In this document: positions 57,987 through 64,000 of the stretch, in pieces | How positions within the stretch are numbered: position 1 is the first letter of the stretch | Layout: every line of letters begins with the position of its first letter | Source: Escherichia coli | Lineage (GTDB): Bacteria > Pseudomonadota > Gammaproteobacteria > Enterobacterales > Enterobacteriaceae | Reading direction: 5' to 3' (one strand) | Assembly: GCF_013122565.1 (NCBI RefSeq) | Contig: NZ_CP053258.1 | Length of the DNA: 64,000 nt | Notes under the pieces: generated by a model | Database searches by the model: none | The model's input: only the letters and a program-made list of their open reading frames with translations | What the model was told of the DNA's origin: nothing | Translations under genes and position numbers: made by a program

Positions 57987-58080
57987 GCATGATTCACCTG
58001 TAGCGGTTGCTTCCCGCGCTTCCATAGAAATCCCCTCGATTTGAACATTTGGTTCTTATGGCAAAGATTTAGTCTAAGCA

Positions 58081-58097
58081 GGCAAGATTTACGCCAG
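58081..58097 (-). promoter_or_regulatory. candidate sigma54 -24/-12 promoter upstream of xdhABC
   Basis: minus-strand sequence cTGGCgtaaatcTTGCc with GG-N10-GC spacing, about 95 nt upstream of the xdhA ATG; sigma54 activator gene ygeV is adjacent. Confidence 0.35.
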
Positions 58098-58441
58098 AAA
58101 CGACGATAAGCGTTAAGGGAGGAAGGAAGTGTGATGATGTTAAAAAAAACACAGATATGATACGAAACAGGACCCTGAATAGGGGCAGTGATACGTATCA
58201 ATATGAGTGGCGATAAAATCAATGTGATAAATTGGGATTATTACGCATCAGGATGGGAAATAGGGTAAATGAGTCAGGAAATTCGATACCTCTACAGTGA
58301 ATATTTTGCTGATGATACTTCCCTTTGCCAAATGAAATTAATCTCTTTCTCTATTACTGCGTTTTTCCAGAAGCAAGAGATTGGGTATCAAGAGGCTGGC
58401 TGCTATGATATGGCGTCTTGTTTTTTAAGCGAGGAAAGATT

Positions 58442-59194
58442 TTGAGTGCGGGACGCCTGAATAAAAAATCTCTGGGTATCGTGATGTTGTTATCGGTTGG
58501 ACTGCTTTTGGCGGGCTGTTCGGGTAGCAAATCATCCGATACAGGAACGTATTCCGGCTCCGTTTACACCGTGAAACGGGGGGATACTCTATATCGTATT
58601 TCGCGCACCACGGGAACCAGCGTAAAAGAGCTGGCGCGACTGAACGGCATTTCCCCCCCTTACACCATTGAAGTTGGTCAGAAACTAAAACTGGGTGGGG
58701 CGAAAAGTAGCAGTACACGTAAATCAACCGCCAAATCAACGACCAAAACCGCATCTGTTACACCGTCATCAGCGGTACCGAAATCTTCCTGGCCGCCAGT
58801 AGGGCAACGTTGTTGGTTATGGCCAACGACAGGGAAAGTTATCATGCCGTATTCGACAGCTGATGGCGGCAATAAAGGGATTGATATCTCAGCACCACGG
58901 GGTACACCTATTTACGCCGCGGGTGCAGGAAAGGTGGTGTATGTAGGCAATCAGCTGCGTGGCTACGGTAATCTCATCATGATTAAACACAGTGAAGATT
59001 ATATTACGGCTTACGCACATAATGACACGATGCTGGTTAATAATGGGCAAAGCGTGAAGGCTGGGCAAAAAATCGCCACTATGGGGAGCACTGATGCGGC
59101 ATCTGTTCGCCTGCATTTCCAGATTCGTTACCGTGCAACGGCAATTGATCCGCTACGTTACTTGCCGCCTCAGGGCAGCAAGCCAAAATGCTGA
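58442..59194 (+). CDS. ygeR: LysM-domain / M23-peptidase-family lipoprotein
   Basis: lipobox LLLAGC, LysM (YTVKRGDTLYRISR) and M23 LytM-like C-terminus; start uncertain (TTG at 58442 with RBS gagga, TTG at 58418, or ATG at 58484). Confidence 0.8.
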   Translation: MSAGRLNKKSLGIVMLLSVGLLLAGCSGSKSSDTGTYSGSVYTVKRGDTLYRISRTTGTSVKELARLNGISPPYTIEVGQKLKLGGAKSSSTRKSTAKSTTKTASVTPSSAVPKSSWPPVGQRCWLWPTTGKVIMPYSTADGGNKGIDISAPRGTPIYAAGAGKVVYVGNQLRGYGNLIMIKHSEDYITAYAHNDTMLVNNGQSVKAGQKIATMGSTDAASVRLHFQIRYRATAIDPLRYLPPQGSKPKC

Positions 59195-59272
59195 TGGCGA
59201 ATTAATCAGCAGTCAGCAGCGCGGCACTTGCTAAGGAGAGCGTAAGGTTTATAATGCCTTACGCATCTCGAA

Positions 59273-59346
59273 GCGGGCGTAGTTCAATGGTAGAACGAGA
59301 GCTTCCCAAGCTCTATACGAGGGTTCGATTCCCTTCGCCCGCTCCA
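59273..59346 (+). tRNA. glyU: tRNA-Gly (anticodon CCC)
   Basis: 74 nt cloverleaf GCGGGCGUAGUUCAAUGGUAGAACGAGAGCUUCCCAAGCUCUAUACGAGGGUUCGAUUCCCUUCGCCCGCUCCA; encoded CCA. Confidence 0.95.
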
Positions 59347-59579
59347 ATTTATCTTCACCTCATCAACCTGCCATTTTTGTTGTATCTGATTTTCTATATT
59401 ATCTTAATTCAATCGGTTCAGACTTTTCGCAATCGCCGTAATACTTCCCCATTTTTTTGTAAATAAAAAGCGATTACGCAATGCAATCCTTTTGTAACAA
59501 TCCAGGTAAAATACCTTATTTTCAAGTTGTTAAATAAGTGGTTATCTACGCTTTTAACAAACGATTGATGGAATATTTT

Positions 59580-61190
59580 ATGAAAGGGAAATCTGCATTA
59601 ACTCTTCTGCTCGCTGGTATATTTTCATGCGGCACCTGCCAGGCGACAGGGGCAGAAGTGACGAGTGAATCTGTATTTAACATTCTTAATTCCACGGGGG
59701 CAGCAACAGATAAAAGTTATTTATCGTTAAATCCAGATAAGTATCCTAATTATCGTCTTCTGATTCACTCAGCCAAATTAAAAAATGAAATAAAGAGCCA
59801 CTATTCCAAAGACGAAATTCAAGGATTGTTAACATTAACAGAAAATACACGAAAGTTAACGTTGACGGAGAAACCCTGGGGAACATTTATTCTTGCTTCT
59901 ACTTTCGAAGATGACAAAACAGCGGCAGAAACCCACTATGATGCTGTCTGGCTGAGGGATAGTTTATGGGGCTATATGGCCTTAGTATCAGATCAGGGAA
60001 ATAGTGTAGCCGCAAAAAAGGTTCTGCTCACCCTGTGGGATTATATGTCTACGCCCGACCAGATTAAGCGGATGCAGGACGTCATTAGCAACCCAAAACG
60101 ACTGGATGGAATTCCTGGGCAAATGAATGCTGTGCATATCCGATTTGACAGCAACTCCCCCGTGATGGCGGATGTGCAGGAAGAAGGCAAGCCGCAGCTG
60201 TGGAACCATAAACAAAATGATGCGTTAGGTCTTTATCTTGATCTCCTTATACAAGCAATCGACACTGGTACTATTAACGCTGAAGATTGGCAAAAAGGTG
60301 ACCGATTAAAATCGGTTGCGCTGCTGATTGCTTATCTGGATAAAGCCAATTTCTATGTTATGGAAGATTCCGGAGCGTGGGAAGAAGATGCCAGATTAAA
60401 CACATCTTCCGTTGCACTGGTGACCTCTGGACTGGAACGTTTGTCGAACTTACTCTCGAAGAAAGACTCTGTTTTTGTCTCTGATTTACTACGTGAAGCT
60501 AAAGCCAATGAACTGGATGAACCTCTTTCAACAACGAGGTTGAACCACCTCATAGATAAAGGTTATGAAAGAATAACGTTACAGCTTGATTTAGGGGGAG
60601 AATCCCCAGGTTATCTGGAAAAAGATAAACATTACAGAGAAGCCGATGCGGCTTTACTTAATGTTATTTATCCTGCAAATCTTTCAAAGATAAACACCAG
60701 AAGAAAAGAGCAAGTTCTAAAAATAGTTAAAAAACTAGCAGGTCCGTATGGTATAAAAAGATACGAGAAGGATAATTATCAGTCGGCAAATTTTTGGTTC
60801 AATGATATTAAAACCGATACCGATCAAAATTCGCATGCAAAAAGAGAAAAGAGCTTCATTCCATCAACAGAAGCAGAATGGTTTTTTGACTCATGGTATG
60901 CAAAATCAGCAGCAATTGTTTATAAAGAATCAAGAAAAGAAGAGTATTTGAATGACTCAGTGCAATTTATGAATAGATCATTGGCCCAAATAACAGGCGA
61001 GAATATGATTGGTGCAAATGGCAGGAGTGTACCTGAAATGGCACTTCCCGAAAGCTATAACTATATCCACAAGTCGGGAACTTTGCATGAAGCGCCAAGC
61101 CCTATCATTCCGCTAAATTGGTCGAAAGCATCAATGACTCTCATGTTGAAAGAGATGTCCAACCTTATCAATGATGAGGGAAATAAATAG
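59580..61190 (+). CDS. secreted glycoside hydrolase family 15-like protein (glucoamylase / glucodextranase fold)
   Basis: signal peptide MKGKSALTLLLAGIFSCGTCQA; GH15-type motifs WLRDS and EDSGAWEED; start uncertain (GTG 59538, ATG 59568 or ATG 59580). Confidence 0.7.
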   Translation: MKGKSALTLLLAGIFSCGTCQATGAEVTSESVFNILNSTGAATDKSYLSLNPDKYPNYRLLIHSAKLKNEIKSHYSKDEIQGLLTLTENTRKLTLTEKPWGTFILASTFEDDKTAAETHYDAVWLRDSLWGYMALVSDQGNSVAAKKVLLTLWDYMSTPDQIKRMQDVISNPKRLDGIPGQMNAVHIRFDSNSPVMADVQEEGKPQLWNHKQNDALGLYLDLLIQAIDTGTINAEDWQKGDRLKSVALLIAYLDKANFYVMEDSGAWEEDARLNTSSVALVTSGLERLSNLLSKKDSVFVSDLLREAKANELDEPLSTTRLNHLIDKGYERITLQLDLGGESPGYLEKDKHYREADAALLNVIYPANLSKINTRRKEQVLKIVKKLAGPYGIKRYEKDNYQSANFWFNDIKTDTDQNSHAKREKSFIPSTEAEWFFDSWYAKSAAIVYKESRKEEYLNDSVQFMNRSLAQITGENMIGANGRSVPEMALPESYNYIHKSGTLHEAPSPIIPLNWSKASMTLMLKEMSNLINDEGNK

Positions 61191-61256
61191 TTTTCATAAT
61201 GAGGCGGTCCTGGATTAAAAGGACCGCTCAAAGAGAAATCGAAAGGGGAGGTAAAA

Positions 61257-61436
61257 GTGATCAATAAATTACTGTTAGCTTACCTGATAGGTCTGGTTGT
61301 GACATCGACTTTAATATTTATCTTCTCGGAAGAAAAAGTAACATATCGGTTGTTTGCTGCAATAATTACAGGTTTAACCTGGCCGCTTAGTCTCATTCCT
61401 TCCATTATAAGTCTCATGATTCGTAAATCCGACTAA
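61257..61436 (+). CDS. hypothetical small membrane protein (59 aa, two predicted TM helices)
   Basis: GTG start with strong RBS aaggggagg 5 nt upstream; two hydrophobic stretches (LLLAYLIGLVVTSTLIFIF, LFAAIITGLTWPLSLIPSIISLMI); absent from the ORF track because of the non-ATG start. Confidence 0.4.
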   Translation: MINKLLLAYLIGLVVTSTLIFIFSEEKVTYRLFAAIITGLTWPLSLIPSIISLMIRKSD

Positions 61437-61781
61437 CAAGAAAATTATATGATCGATTAAGAAAAATAGAATCGAACAGGAGAATAAAATATATGCGGGG
61501 AGTAACAAAACACTCGCAGTGCGTTAATGAAGAACTAACAAATATGATTTGTATTGAAAATAGTTACCAAACAAGTGTTATAAGAAATACGAGGTGTGTT
61601 TAAGTAAAGCATATCAACAGTTACAAATCTGTATATGGACAGGATGACGTACAAGTGTAAGTGGCTGATAGCTATTCGCTCATAACAAAATCATTATTTT
61701 ATAAATAGGAATCATCACTTTTTAATCATGTTTTTATAGCAATTTTATGGAGAATGAGAATATGGAATAAGGAGATGAAAC

Positions 61782-62531
61782 ATGATTGAAGAAGGGCTGT
61801 TACTTCCAATGAATGTTTTGCTTCAAGGACAGAAGTTAACCCTACTGGACCCTGAAATGTGGTTCTTACGGGGAAATGAAAACAAGGATGTAACCCTTGT
61901 TATTACGATCGGTAATAACCATCAAAAATTAATGGTAGTGGAAGATATATTACTGCTCATTGACCGAAGCCAAATTGAGGTAACGGCAGGGAAAGTAATT
62001 TATCATCCACTTCGCATTGATATCCTGAGTAAATTATTAGCTTTTATAGATGAATCAACGGGGAGTGTGGAAAGGGAGCACCATGAGTTGTTTGCTGATG
62101 CCTTGCCCTTTGCATCAGAAGTTGTGCTATTCAGTAAAGTTGCTAGTGAAGCCTGGTTTTTAGCCACTTATCTGAGCAGCGATAATATTAATGAAGTTCT
62201 GTTTCAGCATCTAAGAAAAACAGAATGCTATAAACTGGTTCGCTATTTATTATCGCAATCGCTTATACAGACTTCACTCTATGATCTTGGAGAGCTTTAC
62301 GGCGTATCGTATTCACATTTTCGCCGTTTATGTAGTTATGCATTGGGTGGTAAAGTTAAAACGGAATTATGTGGCTGGAGAGTTGCCAGAGCCGTGTTGG
62401 AAATCATTGAAGGAAACAGTGATATGACAACTATTGCGCATAAATATGGCTACTCTTCCTCATCACACTTTTCAGCCGAAGTAAAAAGCCGGTTAGGAAA
62501 AACACCGAGAGAACTATGTAAAAAGCTATGA
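61782..62531 (+). CDS. eivF: AraC-family transcriptional activator, InvF-like (ETT2 type III secretion regulator)
   Basis: 249 aa; C-terminal AraC HTH (GVSYSHFRRLCSYALGGKVKTEL...YGYSSSSHFS) closely parallels Salmonella InvF; RBS aaggag. Confidence 0.8.
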   Translation: MIEEGLLLPMNVLLQGQKLTLLDPEMWFLRGNENKDVTLVITIGNNHQKLMVVEDILLLIDRSQIEVTAGKVIYHPLRIDILSKLLAFIDESTGSVEREHHELFADALPFASEVVLFSKVASEAWFLATYLSSDNINEVLFQHLRKTECYKLVRYLLSQSLIQTSLYDLGELYGVSYSHFRRLCSYALGGKVKTELCGWRVARAVLEIIEGNSDMTTIAHKYGYSSSSHFSAEVKSRLGKTPRELCKKL

Positions 62532-64000
62532 AAATAAAAATACGCATTACTATTATATTAATTTCAGTCTTATGCATTTTTAATGGATTATCGACTCCTG
62601 GTGCATATGCCGCAGCAGCGAATGGATACGTAGCAAATAAAGAAAATCTACGTAGTTTTTTTGAAACGGTTTCATCATATGCGGGTAAGCCTACAATAGT
62701 TAGTAAGCTTGCCATGAAGAAACAGATCAGCGGAAATTTTGATTTAACAGAACCCTATGCCTTGATTGAACGCCTGTCGGCACAGATGGGGCTTATTTGG
62801 TATGATGATGGCAAAGCTATTTATATCTATGACTCATCAGAGATGCGTAATGCATTGATTAATCTGAGAAAGGTATCGACGAATGAGTTTAATAATTTCT
62901 TAAAAAAATCGGGTCTGTATAACTCTCGTTATGAAATTAAAGGGGGCGGCAATGGTACTTTCTATGTATCGGGGCCACCGGTTTATGTTGACCTGGTCGT
63001 TAATGCTGCGAAATTAATGGAGCAAAACAGCGATGGCATTGAGATCGGTCGAAATAAAGTAGGAATAATTCATCTGGTCAACACATTCGTTAATGACCGG
63101 ACTTATGAGTTACGTGGCGAAAAGATAGTTATTCCTGGCATGGCAAAAGTACTATCGACGTTGTTAAATAATAACATTAAGCAAAGCACAGGGGTGAACG
63201 TACTTTCTGAAATTTCAAGTCGTCAACAACTAAAAAACGTATCACGTATGCCTCCTTTTCCTGGGGCTGAAGAAGATGATGACCTACAAGTAGAGAAAAT
63301 AATATCGACAGCAGGAGCGCCAGAGACTGACGATATACAAATTATTGCATATCCTGATACCAACAGTTTACTTGTTAAAGGAACAGTATCTCAGGTTGAT
63401 TTTATCGAGAAGTTAGTAGCTACGCTTGATATTCCAAAGCGACACATTGAATTATCTTTATGGATAATAGATATTGATAAGACTGATCTAGAACAGCTAG
63501 GTGCTGACTGGTCGGGCACGATAAAAATTGGATCCAGCTTAAGTGCATCATTTAATAATTCAGGTTCAATTAGTACCCTTGATGGGACACAGTTTATTGC
63601 AACAATACAGGCACTTGCACAAAAAAGAAGAGCCGCCGTTGTTGCTCGTCCCGTCGTTTTAACACAGGAGAATATTCCTGCTATATTTGATAATAACCGC
63701 ACTTTCTATACTAAATTAGTCGGCGAGCGTACTGCGGAATTGGATGAAGTAACCTATGGTACGATGATTAGCGTGCTACCACGATTTGCTGCGCGAAATC
63801 AAATTGAATTACTCTTGAATATTGAAGATGGAAATGAAATCAATTCCGACAAGACCAATGTTGATGATCTGCCTCAGGTTGGTAGAACACTTATAAGTAC
63901 TATTGCACGCGTGCCCCAAGGGAAAAGTCTTTTGATTGGGGGATATACACGCGATACGAATACCTATGAAAGTCGCAAGATCCCAATATTAGGCAGCATT
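62528..64000 (+). CDS. eivG: type III secretion system secretin, InvG/YscC family; 3' end beyond the window
   Basis: open frame from the ATG at 62528 to the window end, hand-translated; signal peptide, then near-colinear similarity to InvG (FYVSGPPVYVD, IIAYPDTNSLLVKGT, RPVVLTQENIPAIFDNNRTFYTKL, GRTLISTIARVPQGKSLLIGGYTRD). Confidence 0.85.
   Translation, partial: MKIKIRITIILISVLCIFNGLSTPGAYAAAANGYVANKENLRSFFETVSSYAGKPTIVSKLAMKKQISGNFDLTEPYALIERLSAQMGLIWYDDGKAIYIYDSSEMRNALINLRKVSTNEFNNFLKKSGLYNSRYEIKGGGNGTFYVSGPPVYVDLVVNAAKLMEQNSDGIEIGRNKVGIIHLVNTFVNDRTYELRGEKIVIPGMAKVLSTLLNNNIKQSTGVNVLSEISSRQQLKNVSRMPPFPGAEEDDDLQVEKIISTAGAPETDDIQIIAYPDTNSLLVKGTVSQVDFIEKLVATLDIPKRHIELSLWIIDIDKTDLEQLGADWSGTIKIGSSLSASFNNSGSISTLDGTQFIATIQALAQKRRAAVVARPVVLTQENIPAIFDNNRTFYTKLVGERTAELDEVTYGTMISVLPRFAARNQIELLLNIEDGNEINSDKTNVDDLPQVGRTLISTIARVPQGKSLLIGGYTRDTNTYESRKIPILGSI

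Follow-up and report, generated by a model that had tools for sequence, protein, structure and literature searches.

The short open reading frame at positions 61257-61436 of the window, by which we mean the entire 64,000-nt stretch of E. coli DNA that was analyzed, is judged from its sequence to be a genuine protein-coding gene, which adds a third paralogue to the GhoT/OrtT (PF10753) inner-membrane peptides of ~57 aa in E. coli. With a probability of roughly 0.6, we favor the reading that its product would be an OrtT-like orphan membrane-active peptide of this family, encoded in a cassette together with a GH15-like gene, and not a component of the type III secretion system (T3SS). Our reading builds on the family membership, the helical-hairpin architecture, the purifying selection, the lack of a GhoS-type antitoxin gene nearby and the adjacency to the GH15-like gene; toxicity and regulation are extrapolated from GhoT and OrtT. 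Both the gene and the family to which it belongs are on public record, and RefSeq carries the correct family name. What exceeds the existing annotation is the conserved adjacency to a secreted GH15-like gene, a modest new lead.

The small gene, its start and its family

The relevant features of the locus, all positions referring to the window, are:

59580-61190, plus strand: GH15-like gene (homologue of pkgA, ECs3736-3737 and ygeQ), intact, 536 aa from its ATG, with a Sec-type signal peptide
61199-61201, plus strand: upstream ATG taken as the start by some gene callers in 042-type alleles, giving 78 aa; in the window its frame differs from that of the small ORF
61200-61230, plus strand: stable hairpin with an 8-bp core (GCGGUCCU/AGGACCGC at 61204-61227), directly 3' of the GH15 stop codon and without a U-tract
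61203/61204 (L017:2604): left junction of the common deletion of the right end of ETT2, where the hairpin begins, at a distance of 13 nt from the GH15 stop codon
61243-61251, plus strand: Shine-Dalgarno sequence AAGGGGAGG, with 5 nt between it and the GTG at 61257
61257-61436, plus strand: 59-aa CDS with GTG start, orthologue of ECs3735 (WP_001301699.1), GhoT/OrtT family (PF10753)
61782-62531, plus strand: eivF (RefSeq name), encoding an InvF-like AraC regulator (match to the InvF model with 1.2e-54)

The GTG-started ORF of 59 codons, which ends with the TAA codon at 61434-61436, was found at the position and with the translation given in an earlier note on this DNA, and the strong ribosome-binding site claimed there is present as well, i.e. 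AAGGGGAGG at a distance of 5 nt from the GTG. The placement also holds: the upstream ORF (59538/59580-61190) yields a weak match to Pfam Glyco_hydro_15 (4.5e-5) and the downstream gene matches InvF/EivF with 1.2e-54. The frame, said in that note to be missed by the ORF track because of its non-ATG start, is unlisted only in the track of the note itself; the program-made ORF list includes it with its GTG start. All homologues, including those of E. albertii, Yersinia and loci L008 and L009, have an SD-like motif in front of the start, and in every lineage this motif is preserved along with the length of the gene (57 or 59 aa) and the position of its start. The ATG of the E. albertii gene aligns one codon downstream of the GTG at 61257. 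In 042-type alleles the Shine-Dalgarno sequence reads AAGGGAGG and is thereby one G shorter than AAGGGGAGG of the window; only in alleles with GGG, not GGGG, is the ATG at 61199 in frame with the small ORF. Since the resulting extension to 78 aa is out of frame in the window allele, overlaps the hairpin and has no equivalent in E. albertii and Yersinia, the 78-aa form was rejected and GTG 61257 is regarded as the shared start. Owing to the GGGG/GGG polymorphism, the wrong call of 78 aa is widespread in public gene collections (e.g. P0015, P0016 and P0038).

The encoded protein matches the Pfam family PF10753 (Toxin_GhoT_OrtT, formerly DUF2566) with an i-Evalue of 1.4e-11 and 44.9 bits, residues 4-46 being aligned to positions 3-46 of the 55-position model, and all homologues carry a precomputed PF10753 label. 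Comparison with the K-12 proteins, taken from NC_000913.3, revealed an identity of 39% for GhoT (46 aa aligned, E 2e-12) and of 25% for OrtT. In an alignment of 24 members including GhoT and OrtT, residues Y9, G12, R31, G39 and T41-W42-P43-L44-S45-L46 are invariant or nearly so, and the family signature Y-G...R...G-TWP-L-S-L is found in the small protein. The two hydrophobic helices and the short charged loop described in the earlier note are borne out by the hydropathy profile, in which hydrophobic residues 5-23 and 32-54 are parted by S-E-E-K. An AlphaFold2 model calculated from the 24-sequence alignment (mean pLDDT 87.4) predicts three helical segments, residues 2-23, 28-40 and 46-58, and a kink at TWPLS. 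With its 59 aa and its two helices joined by a polar loop, the protein conforms in size and layout to the ~57-aa GhoT/OrtT peptides. Scans of the small protein against NCBIfam gave nothing meaningful, PADLOC assigned no significant defence family, PHROGs contained no significant holin family (best holin match with E 0.33), and a match to a T3SS family was obtained neither in NCBIfam nor in Pfam.

The likeness to GhoT (YjdO, b4559), the toxin of K-12's type V GhoST system, extends from the common Pfam family, similar length (57 vs 59 aa) and 39% identity to the two hydrophobic helices, the S-x-E-K...R loop and the G-x-TWP-x-S-L motif. In contrast to ghoT, the small gene has a GH15-like gene rather than ghoS upstream, and its mRNA has 3 GCU sites as compared to none in ghoT. 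Its product further differs from GhoT by I, V or A in place of F38 and by a charged C-terminal tail. At the position of GhoT Phe38 the aligned residue is I36; it varies between I, V and A among E. coli alleles and is V or S in the Yersinia-type members. Exchange F38R abolishes toxicity of GhoT (PMC4344625). As the published substitution introduced an arginine, a hydrophobic residue may be tolerated at position 36, and the change from F38 to I36 weakens the case for toxicity without excluding it. The charged tail (IRKSD in E. coli, IHKSEQ in E. albertii) takes the place of LFSLF, and GhoT and OrtT have no such tail. OrtT (YdcX, b1445, K-12) belongs to the same family and resembles the small protein in being an orphan without an adjacent antitoxin, but the identity is only 25% and ortT is located together with ydcY and yncL. 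In Serratia, OrtT orthologues adjoin a gene for a TonB-dependent receptor.

The reading frame is under purifying selection. From the O157-type allele carried by the window, the 042-type allele differs by 6 synonymous and 2 nonsynonymous changes (dN/dS ~0.10; binomial p 0.004), and 7 synonymous and 1 nonsynonymous differences separate the window from contig L004. Comparison with E. albertii gave a pS of 0.69 and a pN of 0.23, corresponding to dN/dS ~0.14, and the Yersinia-type homologues among themselves exhibit values of 0.19-0.44 with synonymous sites near saturation. Conservation of the frame in orthologous islands, the lack of which the earlier note had named as a refutation, is therefore evident. 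Against a chance ORF stand the PF10753 match of 1.4e-11 and the maintenance of the frame, despite saturated synonymous divergence, in 12 sequences that represent at least five lineages. The proposal of a real gene for a small two-helix membrane protein, whose frame is conserved and whose GTG start and Shine-Dalgarno sequence look functional, is hence upheld.

In contrast to the earlier note, which called the ORF unlisted and considered an unannotated small protein, this gene is already annotated. Region 61100-61800 was compared by megablast with 5,426 complete E. coli genomes, and 12 full-length records were sampled evenly down the ranking; in all 12, RefSeq designates a CDS at the position of the match as "GhoT/OrtT family toxin". 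In the O157:H7 strain BB24-1 the CDS of WP_001301699.1 maps exactly onto window positions 61257-61436 and encodes the identical protein, and the same annotation is found in strains 042, 2021CK-00607, 14EC029 and RMDEC465. Moreover, a published table of ETT2 genes lists ECs3735 as a ydcX homolog of 180 bp encoding an inner membrane protein, located between eivF (ECs3734) and pkgA (ECs3736), the latter being listed as "phosphorylase kinase and glucoamylase" (PMC3977695); ydcX is the former name of ortT (PMC4344625). ECs3735 of E. coli O157:H7 Sakai (WP_001301699.1) is the same gene, with identical protein, identical position and identical length of 180 bp between pkgA and eivF. No functional study of ECs3735 was found in the searchable literature, and ECs3735 and the Z-numbers are absent from the EHEC RIBOseq supplements that were searched for expression or ribosome-profiling data.

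The GH15-like gene as conserved neighbor

An exhaustive phmmer search of the small protein against 1.84 billion representative proteins returned 13 hits only, three of which are distinct relatives with 44-61% identity. A profile search added three further members and revealed a gap in scores: members of this clade reach 74 bits or more, the rest of the family 55 bits at most. The genomic contexts of the homologues are:

E. albertii (L005): GH15-like gene, small gene, eivF-like gene, T3SS genes
Y. enterocolitica (L006, L018): GH15-like gene, small gene; IS-rich region with RES and AbiEii genes
Y. enterocolitica (L007): GH15-like gene, small gene, LysR gene; T3SS gene absent from the 4.7-kb contig
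A further enterobacterium, three samples (L008, L019, L020): invH remnant, small gene, ~860 nt, GH15-like gene
L009 homologue: contig too short to show the context
GH15-only loci: L021/L022, next to IS66; L023, next to prgHIJK-orgA; L024/L025, Commensalibacter

Five lineages are represented by informative contigs, namely E. coli (the window), E. albertii, the two Y. enterocolitica alleles (L006/L018 and L007) and the further enterobacterium. In all five, a GH15-like gene is located less than 1 kb from the small gene, with or without T3SS genes. In the ±10-kb view of the Y. enterocolitica locus (L018), no T3SS genes are found within 10 kb of the small gene. The conserved neighbor of the small gene is therefore the GH15-like gene and not the T3SS: since the Yersinia copies keep GH15 without a T3SS gene within 10 kb, the small gene travels with the former. 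Together, both genes constitute a cassette at the glyU-proximal edge of ETT2. The tRNA-Gly gene is located at 59273-59343, and across it the G+C content drops from 51% to 39%, as expected at the glyU-ETT2 junction. Members of the family outside of this clade in Serratia are orphans without a GH15 gene.

GH15 and small proteins diverge in parallel, with identities to the window of 76, 58 and 56% for the former and 60, 45 and 44% for the latter. Sec-type signal peptides, judged by eye, are present in all GH15 homologues of the clade loci. The linkage is not reciprocal: tblastn detected GH15 homologues with 53-58% identity that have no GhoT-like gene nearby (L021-L025). In O157:H7 the GH15 gene is frameshifted (ECs3736 and ECs3737; L001:1486-3091), whereas it is intact in the window, and the small protein is identical in both. 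The linkage could reflect a functional tie or, equally, common descent of a tight pair at the edge of an ancestral island.

The GH15-like protein encoded at 59580-61190 contains the invariant motifs DSGAWEED (residues 263-270) and LPESYN (residues 489-494), which we take to resemble the regions of the catalytic acid (WEE) and base (SEQ-Y/F) of glucoamylases; by this analogy, the motifs suggest that the GH15-like enzyme may be active. A structure model of the GH15 protein was poor (pLDDT 60), and the best Foldseek match, the GH15-like domain of phosphorylase kinase beta, was non-significant (E 0.05). The GH15 family itself is present across many distant phyla with 40-58% identity (Commensalibacter, Elusimicrobiota, Planctomycetota, Bifidobacterium). 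GH15-like homologues also recur beside SPI-1-type T3SS genes in other organisms (L023, L008 and L019): L023 (357-3430 and 4001-5647) carries prgH-prgI-prgJ-prgK-orgA together with ParA/SopB and a SopD-like gene, and the invH remnant is located at L008:2537-2830 and likewise present in L019.

Spacers, regulatory searches and distribution among E. coli genomes

The spacer between the GH15-like gene and the small gene comprises only 66-100 nt. The hairpin at 61200-61230 has a folding energy of -19.7 kcal/mol (z -3.15), and L005, L006 and L007 also have a hairpin at this place, though without relation in sequence. Folding is significantly better than that of shuffled sequences in the E. coli alleles, in L005 and in L007, but not in L006, whose spacer has a z value of -0.48. 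Possibly, the hairpin acts as a partial terminator or stabilizes an mRNA end and would thereby uncouple expression of the GH15-like gene from that of the small gene. In the Yersinia spacers the sequence TATACT follows directly after the hairpin (L006:2290-2300; L007:2274-2282), ~35-45 nt upstream of the start of the small gene, and may represent the -10 element of a dedicated promoter; an equivalent is missing from the E. coli spacer.

Downstream, 345 nt separate the small gene from eivF, and conservation of this spacer is poor outside its last 70 nt. The E. coli and E. albertii spacers are unalignable apart from these ~70 nt in front of eivF (61712-61781; L005:2569-2638), which are almost identical. 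The conserved part is probably the promoter, the 5' UTR or a regulator-binding site of eivF, and the unalignable remainder argues against a conserved sRNA or antitoxin in this spacer.

When the K-12 proteins GhoS and YdcY were compared by tblastn with the 64-kb window and seven related loci, only chance-level matches were obtained (GhoS E ≥0.3). The place that ghoS takes in the ghoST operon, immediately upstream of the toxin gene, is occupied by the GH15-like gene. As no GhoS or YdcY homologue is encoded nearby, the small gene is an orphan like ortT. One stretch with weak similarity to GhoS is found repeatedly within GH15 genes of the Yersinia type; with E values of 0.3-0.7 it was judged to be a chance match. 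Rfam detected only the tRNA-Gly within positions 58000-63000, and promoter-like sites were no more frequent than in shuffled sequence. A terminator-like palindrome on the minus strand within the ORF (61381-61369) was dismissed as coincidental; it falls on the TGLTWP codons and is missing in E. albertii. The scan for promoters and terminators accordingly provided no evidence for an antisense RNA antitoxin. GCU sites, which are recognized by MqsR, are present 3 times in the mRNA of the small gene, twice in that of ortT and not at all in that of ghoT. No evidence for control of the small gene by the stringent response emerged from this analysis, a point in which it differs from ortT.

Region 61100-61800 was matched in 3,279 of the 5,426 complete E. 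coli genomes, and 1,306 of these 3,279 contain the full stretch. The other ~1,973 genomes (~60%) match the 3' end of the GH15-like gene but lack the small gene and eivF. In most of them, the match ends at 61203 (base 104 of the query) and the sequence continues into an eivJ/spaN remnant, and the hairpin, the small gene, eivF and genes beyond are lost, the right junction being outside of the window. This corresponds to the deletion of ~8.7 kb known from the right end of ETT2, an island that is widely degenerate. Some E. coli variants of the small gene have altered C-termini or have lost the stop codon. About a quarter of the complete E. coli genomes (1306/5426) consequently possess a third GhoT/OrtT paralogue, which is absent from K-12 and could contribute to stress tolerance or persistence. 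Phenotypes ascribed to ETT2 deletion or to the eivF-proximal region might in part be due to the missing membrane-active peptide, and the linkage to GH15 (pkgA) provides a testable handle on two uncharacterized genes.

The scan of genome contigs returned only contig L004 (JAIJJM010000090.1), which is assigned to a metagenome-assembled genome of "Collinsella sp." and carries E. coli ETT2 sequence with a small protein of 98% identity; probably, this is a binning error or contamination. Tblastn searches yielded no true matches on plasmids and no match in 50,697 phage records. PLSDB records NZ_CP134663.1, NZ_OL790696.1 and NZ_CP141089.1 have sizes of 4.8-4.9 Mb and are E. coli chromosomes, and the plasmid "hits" to the locus are therefore artefacts.

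Candidate function and alternative readings

By analogy with its relatives, the peptide, if present in sufficient amounts, would insert into the inner membrane as a helical hairpin, lower the membrane potential and the ATP level, and slow growth or cause lysis. Membrane damage, loss of ATP and growth arrest upon overproduction have been demonstrated for GhoT and OrtT only, and OrtT is a proven toxin without antitoxin (PMC4344625). Experiments likewise identified no antitoxin for OrtT, and GhoS does not neutralize it (PMC4344625). H-NS is reported to modulate ETT2 genes, and silencing of this AT-rich island would, together with the hairpin between the small gene and the upstream GH15-like gene, normally keep the level of the small protein low. 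Replacement of F38, the charged tail and the co-occurrence with GH15 count against the reading as a stand-alone toxin, and a very strong Shine-Dalgarno sequence in combination with the lack of an antitoxin would be risky if the toxin were potent.

The main rival, which we consider rather unlikely, is that the small protein is not an autonomous toxin but a functional partner of the secreted GH15-like enzyme, which it would release, anchor, regulate or assist as a holin-like permeabilizer. Indeed, wherever the flanks of a subfamily member are sufficiently covered, a GH15-like gene is less than 1 kb away, the two proteins diverge in parallel, and both genes are intact in L008, L019 and L020, in which the gene order is swapped and ~860 nt are inserted. 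Class II phage holins are likewise small, possess two TM helices and a charged C-terminus, and are encoded beside a glycoside hydrolase gene; the charged tail of the small protein is holin-like in this respect. However, the GH15 homologues all have their own Sec signal peptides and hence need no holin, the neighboring enzyme is GH15-like rather than a muralytic endolysin, and neither a holin family match nor a lysis cassette with an endolysin was found: the best PHROG holin match has an E value of 0.33 and no phage homologues were found. Moreover, GH15 homologues with 53-58% identity exist without a GhoT-like gene (L021-L025), the GH15-like gene persists without the small gene in the deletion strains, and the O157:H7 copy carries a frameshift beside an intact small gene. 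The short spacer of 66-100 nt can also hold the pair together by descent alone. In its most far-reaching form, the partner idea would make the GH15-linked clade with signature TWPLSLIP, which ranges over Escherichia, Yersinia and one further enterobacterium, a dedicated membrane partner in a mobile two-gene cassette that is repeatedly lodged at the edges of SPI-1-type T3SS islands, rather than a toxin of the toxin-antitoxin type; this version appears unlikely to us as well.

An OrtT-like orphan remains our preferred reading also in comparison with a type V toxin that is controlled in trans by chromosomally encoded GhoS, i.e. as part of a GhoST network. ETT2-positive strains normally also carry ghoST, and GhoT is the closest characterized relative (39% identity). 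Nonetheless, we regard control by GhoS as quite improbable: there is no adjacent GhoS gene, and with 3 GCU sites as compared to none in ghoT, the mRNA of the small gene lacks the MqsR-resistant design of the latter. The inability of GhoS to neutralize OrtT, called the closer paralogue, also argues against it (PMC4344625). Very improbable is a T3SS-related chaperone-like or regulatory function within ETT2, as surmised in the earlier note. In both E. coli and E. albertii, eivF is the gene immediately downstream, the homologue in L008 and L019 adjoins an invH remnant, and in the common deletion the gene is lost together with eiv genes. But the protein belongs to PF10753 and is unrelated to any T3SS family, T3SS genes are lacking within 10 kb of the Yersinia copies (L006 and L018) and on the 4.7-kb contig of L007, where the small gene is accompanied by GH15 instead, and the spacer to eivF is unconserved apart from the eivF-proximal 70 nt. 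T3SS chaperones are also soluble, unlike this hydrophobic integral membrane peptide. Hardly credible, finally, is a decaying relic or chance ORF without functional product, which the selection data largely refute. The wide degeneration of ETT2, the variants with altered C-termini or lost stop codon and the absence of the gene from ~60% of the genomes keeping the GH15 3' end fit with decay, but dN/dS values of 0.04-0.2 at several depths, the significant PF10753 match and the conservation of length, start and Shine-Dalgarno sequence despite saturated synonymous divergence point to a maintained gene.
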